A stretch of 64,000 bases of DNA from Giardia intestinalis (lineage: Eukaryota). Below are positions 4,163-48,429 of this stretch, piece by piece. The translations under genes and the position numbers were made by a program. How positions within the stretch are numbered: position 1 is the stretch's first letter; every line of letters begins with the position of its first letter. The notes beneath the pieces were generated by a model. The model was not told where the DNA came from, searched no databases, and worked only from the letters and a program-made list of their open reading frames with translations. The stretch is from assembly GCA_000002435.2 (NCBI GenBank), contig CM018793.1; one strand, given 5' to 3'.

Positions 4163-7100
4163 ATGGCTCTTTTCGACGGCTCACGCCCCGTATCTGTCCA
4201 TGACATAAGGCAGTTTACCGCTCGGGAGACTAGTAATGCTAGAAGGGTCGTTGCTGCCACAAAGCTCGTGCATTGGTACCGAAATGCACAGCTCAGAAAG
4301 TACGCACGGATCCGTCTCTCCCTTCAAAAGGCCTACTATAGAGGCCTGGTAAGAATGACATTTACGCGTTGGATTCGGTATTTTAGAATTTTGAAGACCT
4401 CTAGGACACGGATTTATCGCTACATTTTTGACCAATGGAGAGAGTCTATAAAGGAGACAATTACATCTGTGCGTTACTATGAAATGAAGCTGCTTGCACG
4501 TGTCTTTTTTCTCTGGCGGATGGATTCAGGGAGTCGTATTTGCTATATGGAATTATTGACAAAGGACAGAGGGCTTGATCCACACGTGAGGCAGCGCCTT
4601 GAAATGTTAAAGCTTCGTAGTATCTTGCTGTTCTGGCGTGCCCGGCAGGTGCTATCAAAGTGTCTCAACATCGGTTTGGAGCTGACTGTGAGCATAGGTG
4701 TAGTCGCCAGCAAGGTACCTCAAAGCTCTTCCAGCCCCATCTGGAAAGGGTATCTATATTATCTCAACTCTTTTGGGGTCATAGAATCAACGATATCTTC
4801 TAAGCTATCTGCAAGGCTCTTGTGGGATTCGTTTGCTAGCTGGAAGCATAAGGCTGTTACTATCTTGCGGAGAAAAAAGTTGGAGGTGGGGGTGCGTGAA
4901 CTGGAACTGAGATGGCTTCGGCCATTCTTCAAATCATGGGTTCTACTCCACCGGACTCGCCTCTACATTCTTGATCACGCAATTGTTCGGTGGCAGCTAG
5001 TTCTTTCTGTACACATTAGGCATGCAGAGGCAGTACGGGCTGCACTTGAGCTTCGCAAATATGCGCTCAAAAGGAGCCACTTCAATAGCTGGACAAGGTA
5101 TCTCTTTGCCCGTGAGCTGCATGCCCGTCACCATTGTTTAGAGAAGGTTTATGGCATGGCAGATAACGGTCACGAGAGGAGCTTTGTGTGCTCTGGCTGG
5201 TTAAAGTATGCTCTGTTCTTTGTCCACAGTCTCTTAAAAGATTATTGCCTGCAAGCAACTGCATTCAGATGCCTGCACAAGCTTAGATGTGCCATTGACG
5301 CCCCTAGGTGCTGGCGGAGGTTGACCGTGCTTGCTTGCGGGACCTATTATATTAGTCGCTTGCGCCTTTATCTACGGGCGTGGGCCTTTGTTGCTTTTAA
5401 GATGAAGACAATAGAGAAGAGACAGCGATCGTTTTGTGCCATCGACGACATTGTTTTCCAGCCTGCAGATATAAAGCTGTTGCATGACAAGCACAATGCT
5501 GAGCTCGCATGTCCTGAGAGTCTCTTTCTCATGGGGCTGATCTCCAAAAACAGTAGGATCCAGCCTCATCGTCTGGCGGTTCTGTGCAAAGGGGACAAGC
5601 ATAATTGCTTATTACTAATGAAGCTACGCAGGTATATCTCCTATCAGCCAACTGGAACTATACACTGTTTGTATAGGGGGCTGGATGATAGTGACGCGAT
5701 GGCAAGCGTAGATCGACTTTTATTTAAGTTTGCCATTGTGGCCATGACACGCCTTGGTAGCTATAATACCTGTTACATAGAAGCATATCGGAGTGAGTCC
5801 ACACTCAAACTAGAGAACCCTGCACAACATCGTCAAGCTATGGCACTGGTCCAGCGGAACCTAGCAATACGATATCATGAATTTTTAGCCGCAACCGATC
5901 TACTCTATGCTGATCTCTACACTAATGGACCCCAATCCCCTTCTGAAAAGAGGATTGGTGCATACATCTCTGGAAAATTTCCTCATATTAGAAAGGCGCT
6001 GGACACAGAGTCGGTTACTCTATTGACGACGGCCTTTCTGCTAGAGACACCAGCTATCATGTTTACAGATAGAAGAAGTGTGATCTCCTCTAGCTTCTTA
6101 CTACAGACGTGGATGGGACACAGGCAATCCTACGCCTCGCAACAAAAAGACAGGCCGCACCATGAGGACTTTCTTCAGTCTATTACCGCAGATTCTATCT
6201 CTATTGTTGATAATGTATATTTTACGGGGCTAAGTCGCGACTTTAATGCAAAAGGAGTGACTACGCTACTAGGCCCCAATGTTTTCCCTGTTGACAACTC
6301 TATTACCGCAGCAGAACGTGCTTCTTTATGTATGCAGCTCGAAGTGATAAAGAACAAACGCTTTTCTGTTTCGTCAGAGGCAGAGTGCTGGCTTCTGGGC
6401 GCTATTGCCAGTGCATCAGAGCGTGAGCTCCAGCTGTCGGCTATTTATAGAAGAAGACTTTATCTAAGACAAGCATCTCGTCTCCTAGCCTCGCCAATCC
6501 GCCAAGTTCCCTCGCAGCTCGCCCCTCTCGACGCTCTCGATAATGATGTTAGCAACGTCTCTGTTGCACCAGACGAAGAGCCTCTAGGCGTCACACATCT
6601 GTTTCAGCGTGCTCGAACCATCCAGGTGGATCGCTTTACAACAACATTGATTTCGACGGATGCAACACGTGTCACAGTGGACGAGATGAAGCATCTCGTT
6701 GAAACTGTGCGAACATCTGTTGTACATCCGTCTCTACTTACATACATAAATGCAAAAGCGCCGGAAGGTGAAGCAGCAACCACAATGGAGATTGCCGTTC
6801 CGGTCGAGTTAGAACCTCCAACCAGATCATTTGATGAACTCCTGAAGCTAGAAAGGAAGATCACTAGTACCGCCGTGAGAATTATAGAGAGATCATTCAG
6901 TATTGCTCCCCTTAGCCAAATCAACACAGGGTCGTTTTGTATGCTCCCAGATGAGCAATTGGTTAATTCATCTGATTTAAGCTTTCTGCAATCTTCGCAA
7001 CTACTTAGTAGGCAGAATTCTTATGTATCTCCATCTTTTGAGCAATACTCCCGTCCAACGGGACAGCACTTAAAGCCACGAAATTCTACCAAGAATTCCA

Positions 7101-16741: not shown

Positions 16742-18541
16742 ATGGGAAAAGATCCCCTTTTCATCGTCACAAGACTGAATAATGCCCAGCTTCTTGTAGA
16801 GCAAGGAACGTTGAACGTCGGGCCAGACTTCTCTGTTGAAAGTAACTGGCACTCCATTGACTGGTTCAAAACTCAAAGCGAGCGGCTCTTAGAAGTTATC
16901 CCCCTTAATAAGAAGAACCTCATATGTTGTATTCTATCAACTCAGATTACTTGTATAGATATCACTACAAGTGGACGGCCCTGCTCTCTTTCGCTGCAGT
17001 CGCCTATCTCTCATTATTGTTATTATGAGTACCTTCCAATGTGCCTCTTTCTGGCAATCCAGACGTCTGATGCTCTCAGAGTTTATAAACTCGTTTACGA
17101 AGGCCAGCAGCCATACTTCCAGACCATATATGAGTTCCCCAGTGATCTCCTTTTAGGCTTGGGAAAGATCATGACCATGTCGATGTGTCCTGACTTCCTC
17201 GCTATCTGCACATGCGTTTACCCACACGGGAAGCGTAGCGCCCTTACAACCATCAACGTGTTCCATATTTTGGATGATAGGTGGTCTTCCAACGCAGAAG
17301 ATAGCAGAGAAACTAAGGATGACGGCGAGTCAAACCCCGGCCCTGGGTCTGTCTCGACCACTGCCTTCCAGCTTCTAGGCCGCCCTAAGACAATTCAATT
17401 TGATAAGGCGTCTCAGCTCATAATCGTCCTCAAGCGGAGCGAAACATACTACTTCTTCAGATACAAGTTTTTCTCTGAGCTCACAAGCGAAGGGGCACCT
17501 GTTGTCCGCGGAGAGCTTCTCTCTGAACCGGCCACTGGCATGCAGTATCAATTCCGCTCATGCATTAGCAAGCACTCAATTCTATATGCAGGCCGTTATC
17601 CCAACTATGTCTGTATAGAGTGTCGCCGGAATCCTCGGAGCTTCACCTTTGCTGCTCATTGTGAGTTCTCCAGCGAACGCGAAGTAGTTGGCGTGTCTAA
17701 TACCCCTAACGGATCTTTTGTTGCGGCTGTTGACCCTAACAGAACCCACATCGACCTTTACTACAACTTCTGCTTTTGCGCAAGCATTCAACTTGTTGGA
17801 AAGGGTGGGCCCATACAAAAGGGCTCAAAGCTTCTGGGGTGCTGCATCCTCCCGGAGTCCTACTATCTCTTAGCCTACACATCTACGGGCCTCATGGCCT
17901 TGTACTGTATCCAGAACTGCTCATATGGCTTATTCCAGGTCAACAGGACATATACTCTTCCCCTGGCATCGTATGCCATTGAACGCACGCGTCGCTCACT
18001 CCTTGTTCTTTATGATACGCACTATCTCTACCTCTACATAAAGCCTACCGATGATATGGACTCTCTAACCTCGGCCACGGCGTGGTGTCCTAACCCCGCT
18101 CACGTCGCCGCTTACCAAAAGATCTTTACGGATGAGCGGGGGGCCATGGAAATCGCTGGCTTCACAACAGGAGTTGCTGGCGATAAGTCCATCATAAATA
18201 TCACCCTCAAATTTAAGACGGACGAGTCGTTTGTGGTAACGCTAGATCTAGAAGATGGAGACTTCGTGCCCGATAGCCTTACCGCAGCTATTGCCAGCAC
18301 TACTGCGCGCATAGAGAGCACAGGAGCCCAGACGGCGGTCCATAATCTCAGTCCACAGAGTCCAGATACAACCGCAGCCCCTACCAGTACTAGCATACCT
18401 GCTCCTGATTCTCGAATCTGCAATACTACTAACCCAAACACTTATTTAGAAGACGAGCGAGAGCAAGTCCAGAGCGTTCTATCTTCGATACCCACATCAG
18501 AGCAACCACCAGCTGACAACACTGACACCCAAGTAGCATAG
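16742..18541 (+). CDS. hypothetical protein (599 aa)
   Basis: Long ORF divergent from SAC1 (122-bp gap). Composition is globular, with a Ser/Thr/Pro-rich C-terminal tail. No motif I can name. Confidence 0.45.
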   Translation: MGKDPLFIVTRLNNAQLLVEQGTLNVGPDFSVESNWHSIDWFKTQSERLLEVIPLNKKNLICCILSTQITCIDITTSGRPCSLSLQSPISHYCYYEYLPMCLFLAIQTSDALRVYKLVYEGQQPYFQTIYEFPSDLLLGLGKIMTMSMCPDFLAICTCVYPHGKRSALTTINVFHILDDRWSSNAEDSRETKDDGESNPGPGSVSTTAFQLLGRPKTIQFDKASQLIIVLKRSETYYFFRYKFFSELTSEGAPVVRGELLSEPATGMQYQFRSCISKHSILYAGRYPNYVCIECRRNPRSFTFAAHCEFSSEREVVGVSNTPNGSFVAAVDPNRTHIDLYYNFCFCASIQLVGKGGPIQKGSKLLGCCILPESYYLLAYTSTGLMALYCIQNCSYGLFQVNRTYTLPLASYAIERTRRSLLVLYDTHYLYLYIKPTDDMDSLTSATAWCPNPAHVAAYQKIFTDERGAMEIAGFTTGVAGDKSIINITLKFKTDESFVVTLDLEDGDFVPDSLTAAIASTTARIESTGAQTAVHNLSPQSPDTTAAPTSTSIPAPDSRICNTTNPNTYLEDEREQVQSVLSSIPTSEQPPADNTDTQVA

Positions 18542-18626
18542 ACCAGCTATCAGACACACCACCACCTGTAGGAGACAGAAGAAGACCGAATGAGAAGTCT
18601 TATCTCTAGGATCCAGAATTAAAGGT

Positions 18627-18633
18627 AGTTCAC
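18627..18633 (-). promoter_or_regulatory. AGTGAAC putative polyadenylation signal downstream of the Cys-rich gene
   Basis: The plus strand reads gttcact. The reverse complement AGTGAAC matches the Giardia AGTRAAY poly(A) signal consensus. It sits ~25 nt 3' of the minus-strand stop. Confidence 0.4.
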
Positions 18634-18654
18634 TCATTGCAGGGACTAGTGCAT

Positions 18655-18843
18655 CTAGTCAGCCTTAGCACACGGGCAATTCGGCCCGCACTTGCAGTCA
18701 GCAGACGGATTCCCAGGCTTGCACTTGCAGCTAGGCCCACATTTGCACCCACCATTGTCACAGCAGCCACCACTAGGGTTTGCAGCCACCGGTGCCTTGT
18801 TACCACAGCCGCAGCCACCACAGCACGCTCCAGGAGTAGACAT
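18655..18843 (-). CDS. small Cys-rich metallothionein-like protein (~62 aa from internal ATG)
   Basis: 'MSTPGACCGGCGCGNKAPVAANPSGGCCDNGGCKCGPSCKCKPGNPSADCKCGPNCPCAKAD'. About 30% Cys, arranged as C-x-C, CC and C-K-C clusters with Gly/Pro/Lys spacers. No aromatic residues. The track ORF starts on a non-ATG codon 16 codons upstream. An AGTGAAC motif lies ~25 nt past the stop. Confidence 0.45.
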   Translation of the reverse strand: MSTPGACCGGCGCGNKAPVAANPSGGCCDNGGCKCGPSCKCKPGNPSADCKCGPNCPCAKAD

Positions 18844-19398
18844 TTTATTTGCCGAAGTTTCTAAAAAATAGTTTAAACTATTTTGCAACACGTTGTGCGG
18901 GGGCTTACGGGGCCAAGAGGTGCGAATTCAAAGTTGGCAAGGCCATCTGTGAGAGTAGACAGGTTAAGATGCCTAGGAGTGTATTTTCCCCAGAAGTCCT
19001 GGTTAGAGTAGAGCCTAAATGAACACGGAAAGCCTTATTGTTGTCGTTAGCCAAGGTAGCTCTTGCTTATTTCAGCATTTTGGGATGCGGTAGTACATTG
19101 AAGCCCGTTGGTTCGGCCTGCTAGAACGAAAAAGGGCTGCGCTGTCCAAAAGATTTTATGGTCAGCAAGAAAAAATATTCGATTCCGAGTATCTGTAGTC
19201 TGCAGGAAGCTCAGCACCTAGACTTTGACCTGAAAGAAGCGCCCGCTGAGTTCTAGAGGCCCTCTCGTGGCGTTCTTGGTCTACCTAGCATTGTCAATAC
19301 CAGGCGACAGCTAAAGCTTTAGCGCCCTGATTCTTTACCTGGGTGCCTATCTGTGATATAGTTAACCGTTTCTGAGCATTTCCCACACCTGTAGTAAA

Positions 19399-22300
19399 TT
19401 GCTTTTTTATCTGACTGGCCACGGAATGGAACCAATGGAGACGTCTCAATCACAAGGCACAGACAGCAGTAACTTGGACCGGTGGTTTACAGCAGTTGCC
19501 GAGCGGCAGTACAACTTTATCATAGCAGAGCTGCCGACTTTCAAGTGCTCCAAGAATGCTCACGGTAACACAGCACTAATAGAGGCAGTCTTCCTTGCAG
19601 ACGAACCTGCAGTTCAAATTCTTGCTGCACATGAGTTTGGCTGTAGAAGCGATAATGGAAAGACCGCTCTTGAAGTTGCTTATGAGGTCGGCTTTGTAAG
19701 AGCGTGCGACATTCTTGCTCAGTTTGAGATGGAAGCCCTACATGCGCGTGGAATTTTCCTTTGCCACAGAGCTGTATCTGATGGAAACCTTCCTATGGTG
19801 AGATCTCTTTCACCTTTTTCCATCAACATCGTCCAGCCTACTACGAACCAAACCGCACTGGACTTAGCAATTCGCTTGCCAAGCTCTGACGCAATTATTG
19901 AGGAACTGGTGAATATCTCTGCCATAAGCCTAGAGACGCTTGATCAGGCTTGTAAAACAGCCAGCGAGACTCGAAAAGTCCATGGAGATCGATCAATATT
20001 AGAGCTCCTGCTCATATTTCGCAACAAAAAGGAAGCGAATGCATGCCAACGCTGCGGATGTTTACGAAAGCAACTTATTTATTTGTCATCCCAGTTTCAT
20101 AGGCTCTATTCCAATTTCAGTAACCCATCGAAGGGCGCACAGTCAAGGAGTAACAATAGCTCTCGAAGTTCAAGCGTAGAAGAAGACCTTGCAGGACGGC
20201 AACGGAAGCCACAAAGACATCGGGGCAAAGGGCTTGGTGCAAAGCTTAGTAATCAGGTTTCTGGTGATGCAAAAGAGCACAGCACATCAGACGGCTCAGA
20301 GCATGGAGCGGTTCTGTCCTTTTCTTTGACGCGAGGCTTTGAAAAGCTACGCAGCATGCTTCCCAACGCTTCATTTGACCTAAACATTGACGATAAAGTG
20401 CTCACTGAACTGCTACACTTGTCTAGAACCATGAGAAGGGAGATCTCCTCATTGCGAGAAGACATAGCTCGTAAAAACGAGACTATAGCACAGCTACAGA
20501 GAGAGCTAGGGACTGACAAAACCGACAAACCCGAGTCGTATACTGATGGAAAGGAGGAAGAAGAGATAGAAATTATTCTTAGACCTCACAGTGGGCGCAG
20601 CTGCGCATGCAGTGGAGAGACCAGGGGAGCAACTCCGAAGGAAATTGTGGACACACTAGAATCCAAAGGTTCAAAGAAGTCAGCGGGAAATACAACCAGT
20701 TCTGTGACTGAGTCCAATAATAAGCTTTTAGAAGAAGCCATTGCAGCTATAAAAGCGAAGGATTTGTATATAAATTCTCTTCTCGATGAAAACGACAGTT
20801 TGAAGAAAGGTGCTGCTGAACTAGATACTAGTTCCTATCAAGAGATGATCACGTCTCAGCAGGAACAGATAACCCATCTTATAGATTTGCTATACCAATC
20901 CAAGGCAGCGCTCGAGAAAATGAGTGAGGTCGAGGTGCGTTGTAGCACACTGGAAGACGACAATTCTCTCCTCCGTCAACGGATACAATGTTTGGAAAAA
21001 GCACCACAACAAGACGTGCATCGGGCCTCTGTTGTTCATAAAGGGGTATCTGCTATAGAATCAAGTTCCAGCTCTCGACACACTAACTCTTTGAATAATC
21101 CGGCAGCAGAGCGCATACAGCATTTAGAAGCTACCATAAGGTCTCTGTGTACTGAACTGGACCGTCAAAAGCTGCGTGCACGGGAGTTCGAGAATGATAT
21201 GCAGACACTGGCTGCTGCTAGATCCCACACAGAGATGCTTAAGGAAAAAGTGCTGTGCCAACAGGACGAGATTAAGCGTCTTAACGAGGTGATTGGGGTA
21301 CAGCAGAATTACTTGGAACTAAAAGAGATAGAACTTACGAAGATGACCAAAAGCCTCGAAGAGTTGGCTTTGAGCACAGAGAAGAATAACGAGAGTAAGG
21401 AGCGCTCGGTCTGTGAATCTAGCGCAGATCCAAGGCGTGCTTTTGGATGTGAAGACTTGAAGGCAGCCATACCAAGTGATTCGCCGAGTGCTCCGCGCAG
21501 ACTTTTACGGCGTGCAAACTCCTCACGTCCAGCAACGAGTAACGCAGGAGAGTCCAGACAAAGGCGTGAAGAATCGATACACGTAGCCGTGGACGGTTCT
21601 ACTCGAAGTGGACGTGCACTAAGCGCCTCTGTGGGCCATCGACAGACGAGCTCAGACATGACACTCTATGACCTGGAGTCTACTCCGACCCCAGTCCAGC
21701 GCCTACATAACCAGGAAGTGTCGAGTGAGCTTGTCAAGGAAATGGTGCACTCAGTGATGCAGAGTAGCCCTAGTCTCAAGATACAGCACCCAGGAAACCA
21801 GAGCTCCCTACTCCCCACTCCCTCGTCTGCTAGCCACGCGAAGCCTCCATCACTTGTGCGAGGAGCCCCAGAACTACAACGAAGCAGCTTACAAACACCA
21901 CGCCAACGAAGAATCAGCAACAAGCAACAAGTGGTGGCAATAGCGGCGTCTAGCGCGGCAAACATTGCTGCAGCGCGTCAGGCACTCGGTATGTCAACGC
22001 CGACCACCATTGTCACTGATGCTGCACGCCCTCCCAGTCAGGGTGTGAGTCGATCTACTGGTTCAATTAATCGTGGAGGATTAACCAAACTTATGTCTGC
22101 AGCTATAAGAGGCGACCTAGTGACAGCTAAAGCCTATTTGAAGCAGGACGTTGGGCTCCAAGATGTTGAAGGAAGGTCAGCTTTGTTTTACGCTACGCTC
22201 CACAACCATCCGAGCATTGTCAGAGAACTTGTTTCACGAGAGGCTCTTCTGTCAACAAATAGAAAATACAAGGATGGAGCAGGCGTCACGGCTTTAATGG

Positions 22301-47457: not shown

Positions 47458-48429
47458 CTATTCCAAGCAATCAACTGCAAAGGTGCCACGTCCAAGAATC
47501 GGTCCAAGAGCATGGGCAGTCTGCTTCTGAGCATCCAGGGAGTACAGAAGCTCTGCAAAATCTGCCTTATTTCCCTGGGTTAAGTTCATGGTGATGCCAC
47601 CGTTCAGGACCAGAACAACTTTACCGGACCGGTAGCGCAAGAGCCTCCCTATCTTTCCTTCTCCAAAAGTAGTAATAGGACTTTTATTTTGCACCGTGGG
47701 TACATCAGATTGTTGGGAGGATACAGTGTCAGTAGAGCCACCCGGCGGCACCATTGCACCGTCTTTCTGTAGGTAACTAGCAAGTGATCGGCCGTCGCCA
47801 TGCGATCCAGTGGCGAGGATAGATGAGATAGGGCCGGGAGCAGACTGGGACCGTGCCCGGGCGGCACTCTGAGTGCGTGTCATCTTTGCGACGGGCAAAT
47901 GAGCAGGAAACTGAAACACCGTCAAATGATCCGAAAGTAGGACACGTTCTCCCGAGCGACTGACAACAGGCATATCAAATACCTCGTCAGTCGGCCGCGG
48001 AATGTTGAGCTTTGCTTTGAAGACGCCAGAGTAGATAGATTCCTTGGCGACCAACGAGAGTGTTCTATCTCCATCTGCGTGGGGAACAATAAAGGGGAGT
48101 GAGGTGGGGTAGTTTCCTTTGATCTTGGCTGCCTCCATCACCTGGTAGTCCGGAGAATATGCACCGAGACCCTGTCGAGGCCCCTCATTGCTATATATGC
48201 TAGAAGTCCGTGCTCCCAGATTAGCAATTCTAAAGTCGTCCTCCTTGTTCGCGCCCTTTCGAACCTGTCCTCCCTCTCTTTTAGGGTTCAGCCCATCGGC
48301 CAGAAGAGTCAAATTTGTCGTTGAGCGCTTGACAGACTTAGGCCGATACACCTGTGCAGAGGACTTTTGCTGCTGCTGCTGCTGCTGCTGAAGCTTAAAG
48401 CTAGCAGAGTATGGGTTGGAAATACTCAT
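47458..48429 (-). CDS. RNA polymerase III subunit RPC4/Rpc53-like protein
   Basis: The C-terminal block 'GEGKIGRLLRYRSGKVVLVLNGGITMNLTQGNKADFAELLYSLD' matches the RPC4 family signature (G-KIGkL-v-+SGKv-L-LG...-F-Q-L). The N-terminus carries a poly-Gln run from a CAG repeat and basic low complexity. Confidence 0.5.
   Translation of the reverse strand: MSISNPYSASFKLQQQQQQQQKSSAQVYRPKSVKRSTTNLTLLADGLNPKREGGQVRKGANKEDDFRIANLGARTSSIYSNEGPRQGLGAYSPDYQVMEAAKIKGNYPTSLPFIVPHADGDRTLSLVAKESIYSGVFKAKLNIPRPTDEVFDMPVVSRSGERVLLSDHLTVFQFPAHLPVAKMTRTQSAARARSQSAPGPISSILATGSHGDGRSLASYLQKDGAMVPPGGSTDTVSSQQSDVPTVQNKSPITTFGEGKIGRLLRYRSGKVVLVLNGGITMNLTQGNKADFAELLYSLDAQKQTAHALGPILGRGTFAVDCLE
48368..48390. repeat. 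(CTG/CAG)7-8 trinucleotide microsatellite (encodes QQQQQQQQ in the RPC4-like gene)
   Basis: The plus strand reads tgctgctgctgctgctgctgctg. This is the only perfect trinucleotide run of this length I noticed in the window. Coordinates are approximate to within 2 nt. Confidence 0.85.

Follow-up and report, generated by a model that had tools for sequence, protein, structure and literature searches.

Is the small cysteine-rich open reading frame at 18655..18843 a real gene of Giardia, and could its product be a metallothionein? Both questions go back to an earlier note on the 64-kb stretch of DNA analyzed here (the window), in which a 62-residue product starting with an ATG had been read from the sequence and likened to the metallothioneins (MTs), a polyphyletic and operationally defined class of proteins. 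Coordinates, length and start codon all proved exact: the candidate gene lies on the minus strand, runs from ATG to TAG and specifies 62 amino acids. The peptide is identical to GL50803_28477 (XP_001709416.1, UniProt A8B698), a "hypothetical protein" of Giardia WB (assemblage A); the locus is an already annotated gene without a function rather than an unannotated ORF.

The composition of the peptide is unusual, if somewhat less extreme than the note had estimated. Cysteine accounts for 14 of the 62 residues, that is, 22.6% and not about 30%. The C-x-C and CC clusters that had been noticed are readily counted (5 CxC and 2 CC, to which one CxxC and three CxxxC can be added). The predicted lack of aromatics and of a hydrophobic core also holds: there is no Phe, Trp or Tyr, and M1 and V19 are the sole representatives of Ile, Leu, Val and Met. 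Histidine is likewise missing. The computed mass is 5.79 kDa, with a pI of 8.2 and a GRAVY index of -0.31, and inspection of the sequence reveals no signal peptide, transmembrane segment or N-terminal hydrophobic stretch. Among all ATG-initiated ORFs and all 62-codon windows in the six frames of the 64 kb, this ORF ranks first in Cys richness. Under a naive binomial model, the probability of finding at least 14 Cys in 62 codons is 5e-8, which corresponds to about 0.006 such segments expected per 64-kb window.

Two cysteine-bearing parts, separated by a linker, can be distinguished (Table 1). The larger one, residues 27-58, contains an internal duplication of the motif CKCGP[S/N]C[K/P]C. AlphaFold2, run on a three-sequence alignment, yielded no confident fold (mean pLDDT 53.8, falling below 50 at residues 14-25), a modeling result that would fit a metal-dependent fold or an apo-MT but proves nothing. 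The linker, residues 14-26, combines half of the inter-lineage substitutions with the lowest AlphaFold confidence; it behaves like an inter-domain hinge.

Table 1. Features of the GL50803_28477 locus (positions in the window)
Feature	Position	Strand	Remarks
CDS GL50803_28477	18655..18843	-	62 aa plus TAG stop, 14 Cys; exact match to XP_001709416.1
N-terminal Cys cluster CCGGCGC, residues 7-13, 4 Cys	18805..18825	-	Invariant in three lineages
Cys-free linker GNKAPVAANPSGG, residues 14-26	18766..18804	-	6 of the 12 variable residues: 17, 18, 19, 22, 24, 26
C-terminal 10-Cys block CC-x4-CxC-x3-CxC-x8-CxC-x3-CxC, residues 27-58	18670..18765	-	Cys and flanking K/G/P invariant
AGTGAA poly(A) signal, Giardia AGURAA class	18629..18634	-	Conserved in assemblage E and the third lineage
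3' UTR of GL50803_28477, 35 nt	18620..18654	-	PMC9014877 Supplemental Table S1; column meaning as judged from the paper's main text
AT-rich upstream block TTGCAAAATAGTTT..ACTATTTTTTAG..AATAAA abutting the ATG	18844..18890	-	Presumed initiator/promoter
3' UTR of convergent neighbor GL50803_14677, 866 nt	18542..19407	+	PMC9014877 Table S1

The gene is not peculiar to the WB isolate. An orthologue in assemblage E (GLP15_4449, isolate P15) is 95% identical to GL50803_28477, and a second one, carried by two ENA metagenome contigs of a third Giardia lineage that we infer to be assemblage B, is 84% identical. The concern raised in the earlier note, that the ORF might not be conserved even among Giardia isolates, is dispelled by these values and by the retention of every cysteine (14/14), along with most of the flanking Gly, Lys and Pro residues, in the three lineages. 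Twelve residues vary, half of them within the linker. The P15 locus is syntenic, with the 599-aa convergent gene and the divergent ankyrin-repeat genes in the same places, and its orthologue is single-copy. No annotated orthologue from other diplomonads came out of a word-indexed search of 5.8 billion clusters or of HMMER over 1.84 billion representative proteins, small ORFs being often uncalled; the yield was limited to the two other Giardia lineages and to P0004 and P0005, described below. An Rfam scan of positions 17500-20000 returned no RNA family.

Nucleotide differences are distributed over the three codon positions of the sense frame as 1/2/12 between assemblages A and E and as 6/5/16 between A and the third lineage. 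The resulting dN/dS ratios (Nei-Gojobori) are 0.056 for A-E, 0.17 for A-B and 0.32 for E-B, at dS values of 0.3-0.5, and can be called comparable to the ratio of 0.045 obtained for the neighboring 599-aa gene. Identity between lineages amounts to 92% and 86% in the coding sequence as against 60-78% in the flanks. GL50803_28477 is a real gene under purifying selection, and its cysteine pattern is among the things selected. Upstream of the ATG, the AT-rich block listed in Table 1 is kept across A, E and the third lineage, the remainder of the 5' flank showing 68-78% identity; the block is presumed to act as initiator or promoter. No metazoan MRE (TGCRCNC) or Myb2 site was seen by eye upstream of the gene.

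The transcript has an end of its own. The poly(A)-type AGTGAAC motif that the note had placed about 25 nt after the stop codon is indeed present (18634..18628, minus strand), except that it begins at 21 nt. It belongs to the AGURAA class that serves as the genome-wide poly(A) signal of Giardia (PMC9014877), and the 35-nt 3' UTR recorded in that study by long-read and 3'-end sequencing puts cleavage near 18620, approximately 9 nt past the AGTGAA hexamer. The same work gives 216 and 177 ONT reads for the gene in two replicates, counts higher than those of the genes listed adjacently, and a poly(A) tail of about 57 nt (PMC9014877 Table S2; column meaning of the read counts deduced from the main text). 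Such a tail falls below the 69-nt median of the genome and lies close to the 56.4 nt given as the median for ribosomal-protein mRNAs (PMC9014877). At the protein level, 28477 was quantified by shotgun mass spectrometry (PSM/peptide count 5, LFQ about 1e7-3e8) in a dataset re-analyzed in PMC8866875. The searched parts of the supplements to the Franzen 2013 strand-specific RNA-seq and to the 2013 encystation proteome contain no 28477 entry. The RNA-seq and proteomic coverage called for in the note is therefore available: ONT and poly(A) RNA-seq both record transcription, and MS records the protein. With its ONT reads and its own 3' end, the suspicion that the ORF might lack transcription no longer stands, and GL50803_28477 is constitutively and fairly highly expressed, polyadenylated and translated.

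A complication arises on the other strand. The coding sequence of the convergent neighbor GL50803_14677 occupies 16742..18541 (plus strand), with its stop at 18541; the addition of the 866-nt 3' UTR leads to 19407, which is 9 nt past the AGTAAA at 19393-19398, the first plus-strand AGTRAA after the stop. The GL50803_14677 mRNA therefore covers the 28477 gene in antisense from end to end, promoter included, forming a sense/antisense pair with it and terminating shortly before the ATG of the next gene. The length of this 3' UTR accounts for the unusually long (approximately 580 bp) "intergenic" gap in front of GL50803_16355. One could envision, on these grounds, that the antisense transcript is the relevant one and that the 28477 ORF is a non-coding by-product of GC and Cys-codon composition, the more so as two antisense frames are open in all three lineages. 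We give this view practically no credence. The antisense ORF 18637..18864 (plus strand) has dN/dS ratios of 1.5-2.7, and it stays open because Cys and Gly codons reverse-complement into Ala, Pro and Thr codons; the A-E substitutions, on the contrary, bear the mark of the sense frame. The 28477 mRNA ends at a poly(A) signal and cleavage site of its own and is represented by about 200 ONT reads in each replicate; peptides of the protein are detected by MS. As to the possibility, contemplated in the note, that the antisense frame is the expressed one, the antisense strand is transcribed, as the 3' UTR of GL50803_14677, but a coding ORF on that strand is contradicted by dN/dS above 1. Spurious ORF and antisense coding ORF were both rejected on the combined evidence of dN/dS ratios, MS peptides and ONT reads.

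What kind of protein, then, does the gene encode? By the operational definition (Kagi; Binz & Kagi), metallothioneins are proteins below about 10 kDa with about 15-35% Cys arranged in C-X-C, C-C and C-X-X-C motifs, few or no aromatics or His, and a high content of metal held in metal-thiolate clusters; induction by metals or stress is common among them without being strictly defining. At 62 residues and 5.79 kDa, with 22.6% Cys distributed over five CxC, two CC and one CxxC motifs, and with neither aromatics nor His, GL50803_28477 falls within every one of the limits that apply to a sequence, and the compositional signature recognized in the note is genuine. Among MTs, its Cys content is on the low side, and the 4+10 layout of its cysteines fits no described MT domain. 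From its sequence, the peptide can be called MT-like by every testable criterion, while not being a demonstrable member of the plant or mollusc MT families.

The searches for a family bear this out. The Pfam comparison suggested in the note produced no metallothionein family: across the whole Pfam-A library, 0 families were returned at E<=10 for either the WB or the third-lineage protein, in a scan that also missed the oyster, lobster and Neurospora MTs. Because these controls were missed, the negative outcome is weak, Pfam evidently leaving some genuine MTs uncovered. Human MT2A, Arabidopsis MT2a, pea MT1 and sea-urchin MTA were recognized at 65-106 bits, the MT families responding to the controls being PF00131, PF01439, PF02068, PF05522 and PF12749. 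No solved MT was matched by phmmer in the PDB, where the sole return was a spurious alpha-amylase (E = 2.7), and a profile of the 28477 family gave 0 PDB matches at E<=10. The peptide and its profiles matched nothing in NCBIfam.

Cysteine patterns were also compared directly, by Smith-Waterman alignment evaluated against 500 composition-preserving shuffles, with a set of MT sequences of which four were validated by Pfam. The outcome is divided. Resemblance to plant and oyster MTs stands at z scores of about 3 (3.4 for plant MT1 and 3.0 for plant MT2; 3.3, with a score of 112, for oyster MT, the best alignment to a known MT, from a sequence without Pfam support), whereas human MT2A (z = 0.1) and the Neurospora Cu-MT (z = 0.4) align no better than shuffles.

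The plant type-1 and type-2 MTs (PF01439, Metallothio_2) are small and devoid of His, like 28477, and MT2 also has 14 Cys. The N-terminal CCGG(N)CGCG and the C-terminal GGCKCGxxCxC motifs of plant MTs are common to both. However, plant MTs carry a Cys-free spacer of about 40 residues with aromatics, which 28477 lacks, their cysteines are split 8+6 rather than 4+10, and PF01439, which matched the Arabidopsis (1e-30) and pea (1e-17) controls, left 28477 unmatched at E<=10. With the oyster and mussel MTs, 28477 shares repeated CKCGxxCKC units and Gly/Pro/Lys spacers; these proteins differ in having about 75 aa, about 21 Cys and alpha/beta domains, and no profile-level homology to them was found. 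Vertebrate MT-1/2 (PF00131; 61-62 aa) and the fungal Cu-MTs of the Neurospora type come close in size class, in the lack of aromatics and in their CxC-based motifs, but the vertebrate proteins distribute 20 Cys over M3Cys9 and M4Cys11 domains, and no Pfam or PDB match links them to 28477.

Since Giardia has hundreds of Cys-rich genes, some of which (tenascin-like/SCRP) are rich in CxC, the peptide might also be a degenerate fragment or relative of the VSP, HCMP or tenascin-like surface families. We regard this origin as hardly credible. Members of these families run to hundreds of residues and have a signal peptide, a transmembrane anchor and a predominance of CxxC; a preprint on Giardia Cys-rich proteins defines VSPs and HCMPs by a signal peptide, a C-terminal transmembrane domain (with a CRGKA tail in VSPs), many CxxC and BLAST similarity to family members. 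Like 28477, the HCMPs respond to host cells with up-regulation, in one and the same experiment. The 28477 peptide has no hydrophobic segment, a single CxxC and no CRGKA tail. It has no paralogue in the 64-kb window, and its syntenic orthologue in assemblage E is single-copy. HMMER over 1.84 billion representatives returned no VSP or HCMP, and 28477 goes unmentioned in the main text of the preprint, whose inventory was confined to proteins resembling VSPs, HCMPs, HCPs or tenascin-like proteins. Taken together, the assemblage E orthologue, the HMMER search and the motif content effectively refute the surface-protein fragment.

The closest relatives lie elsewhere. The HMMER search returned one match outside Giardia (E = 9e-8), P0004 (L004 1237..2001), a metagenomic protein of 254 aa whose N-terminus resembles a signal peptide. 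It contains two tandem modules of the form C[KA]CGxxCKCKPGxxSxDCKCGxxCPC, 66-71% identical to the C-terminal block of 28477 by BLASTP; against the 10-Cys block, each of the two reaches 71% over 34 aa. Extended by xK, the module is 63-71% identical to residues 27-60 of 28477 (z = 7.9). Its contig, which has head-protein and portal-like PHROG matches, sigma factors and a dCMP deaminase, is probably a phage. P0005 is a shorter relative, also with a signal-peptide-like N-terminus. Scans of metagenomes and of prokaryote genomes gave one locus each. A Planctomycetes MAG (L006 2833..3270, MHYA01000094.1) encodes a 145-aa predicted secreted protein made of CKCGxDCKCG repeats, with 54% identity to the 28477 C-terminal block; this ORF, used as a query, retrieved no homologue. 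Another locus with the tandem CKCGxxCKC module, at L005 3001..3219, is listed with these three. An IMG/VR scan for relatives of 28477 found nothing, and none of P0004, P0005 and the Planctomycetes protein has an annotation or a Pfam or NCBIfam family.

These proteins may represent an undescribed bacterial and phage family of Cys-repeat, possibly metal-binding, proteins, or else a case of convergence. By the same token, we cannot tell from the sequences whether the similarity of 28477 to them reflects lateral transfer or the convergence of a short, low-complexity motif. They depart from 28477 in their signal peptides, their tandem module copies and their bacterial or phage origin, and P0004 and P0005 carry an additional non-Cys domain that 28477 lacks. 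As the nearest relatives carry signal peptides, the shared module can also work outside the cytosol. The signal-peptide-like hydrophobic N-termini of P0004, P0005 and the Planctomycetes protein, along with the up-regulation of 28477 in late encystation and upon host-cell contact, lend some color to the idea that the Giardia peptide is an exported, disulfide-knotted mini-protein (an effector, an antimicrobial or a cyst-wall-associated peptide) released by an unconventional route. Such export seems very unlikely to us: 28477 itself has no signal peptide, transmembrane segment or hydrophobic residues to speak of, CxC and CC pairs make poor disulfide-knot motifs, and the encystation proteome supplements that were searched have no entry for the protein.

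Expression data provide further clues. During an encystation course (PMC8700996), 28477 mRNA stands at log2 CPM values of about 6.9-7.5 in the trophozoite stage and has reached 8.5-9.0 at 31.5 h, a late increase of about 2.7-fold; it is high in cysts and returns to about 7.3 log2 CPM after excystation, in 3/3 replicate series. Trophozoites placed on Caco-2 cells (PMC7461913; stranded, poly(A)-selected libraries) show logFC values of 1.39, 1.34 and 1.12 at 1.5, 3 and 4.5 h, a contact induction of about 2.6-fold with FDR values of 6e-5 to 1.6e-4. The gene ranks 12th among those up-regulated at 1.5 h, being co-induced with peroxiredoxin 1, PDI3, PDI5, nitroreductase, a thioredoxin-like protein, FixW, glutamate synthase and many HCMPs. 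The authors of that study ascribe the response partly to oxidative stress and to the low cysteine of DMEM (PMC7461913). In metronidazole-resistant lines, 28477 is differential in 8 datasets, up in 5 and down in 3, with no consistent direction (PMC8866875).

The explanation that we find on balance probable is that GL50803_28477 is a cytosolic metal-thiolate and redox-buffering peptide constituting a sequence family of its own. Metal binding, stoichiometry, cytosolic location and physiological role are what we infer in this proposal. Because it has no hydrophobic core, the apo-peptide would probably be disordered. Its 14 invariant Cys thiolates would wrap Zn2+, Cu+ or Cd2+ into metal-thiolate clusters, using as binding groups the N-terminal CCxxCxC and the C-terminal 10-Cys block of duplicated CxCx3CxC units. 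By analogy with the 14-Cys plant MT2, the capacity might be roughly 4-5 divalent ions, or more if monovalent. Lacking a signal peptide or hydrophobic segment, the protein should reside in the cytosol, where its cysteines would exist as free or metal-bound thiolates rather than disulfides. Induced together with the antioxidant and thiol regulon at host-cell contact and in late encystation, and stocked in cysts, it would buffer metals and scavenge oxidants in a parasite that, according to the Spironucleus genome paper, has no glutathione and relies on cysteine as the main thiol inside the cell.

The same absence of glutathione is compatible with a role independent of metals, in which the 14 cysteines would be sacrificial or exchangeable thiols of a redox buffer or cysteine reservoir. 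The co-induction with peroxiredoxin, PDIs, thioredoxin-like protein and nitroreductase in DMEM and host-cell co-culture, the part assigned by the authors to low cysteine and oxidative stress, and the differential expression in several metronidazole-resistant lines all point in this direction. Still, the strict CxC and CC spacing and the conservation of the flanking K, G and P residues are typical of metal-cluster geometry and not of a simple thiol store, and a purely thiol-based function appears to us a possible but rather unlikely alternative. It also overlaps with the metal-thiolate reading, as redox scavenging and metal binding are the same chemistry in known MTs. It is tempting to go further than that reading and to speculate that 28477 founds a new MT family and is the principal soft-metal and thiol buffer of Giardia, that its CKCGxxCKC-x8-CKCGxxCPC module shares ancestry with the secreted repeat proteins of Planctomycetes and phages through lateral transfer in one direction or the other, and that its expression is modulated by antisense read-through from GL50803_14677. 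This larger construction strikes us as doubtful.

Giardia depends on cysteine, its habitat exposes it to varying levels of dietary Zn and Cu, and in the clinic giardiasis is tied up with the zinc status of the host; to our knowledge, metal handling in this parasite is almost uncharted. Searches of the accessible literature by gene ID, by protein accession and by the terms Giardia and metallothionein uncovered no paper on 28477 or on a Giardia or diplomonad MT. The Spironucleus genome paper likens Cys-rich membrane proteins to mammalian MTs by way of analogy only. In 2019, a census of the MT annotations that GenBank holds for protists named Trichomonas, Naegleria, Trypanosoma and Entamoeba, with diplomonads absent. 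The note's statement that no diplomonad metallothionein has been characterized agrees with this census and with the literature searches. Judged by its sequence, 28477 would be a new MT family in a new lineage, which would not be conceptually surprising.

If the metal-thiolate reading is right, no intracellular buffer of metals and thiols will have been defined in diplomonads before this one, and the distribution of MTs would extend to another deep eukaryotic lineage. It would explain why a conserved "hypothetical" protein recurs in datasets on host interaction, encystation and drug resistance, and it would help to approach the way in which thiophilic drugs (auranofin, disulfiram-Zn, nitro-drug radicals) act. 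With a short, single-copy gene and with CRISPRi available in Giardia, the hypothesis lends itself to direct testing.

Two other Cys-rich stretches of the window deserve mention. The second most Cys-rich small ORF, at 6584..6727 (minus strand), has 47 aa with 8 Cys, including CC and CCC, alongside aromatic and hydrophobic residues, and probably represents an out-of-frame artefact. A (TGC)7 microsatellite at 48368..48388 (plus strand) gives the small ORF 48197..48391 (plus strand) a poly-Cys tail; more probably, the repeat lies within another gene, where it is read in another frame or on the other strand as poly-Gln or poly-Ala.
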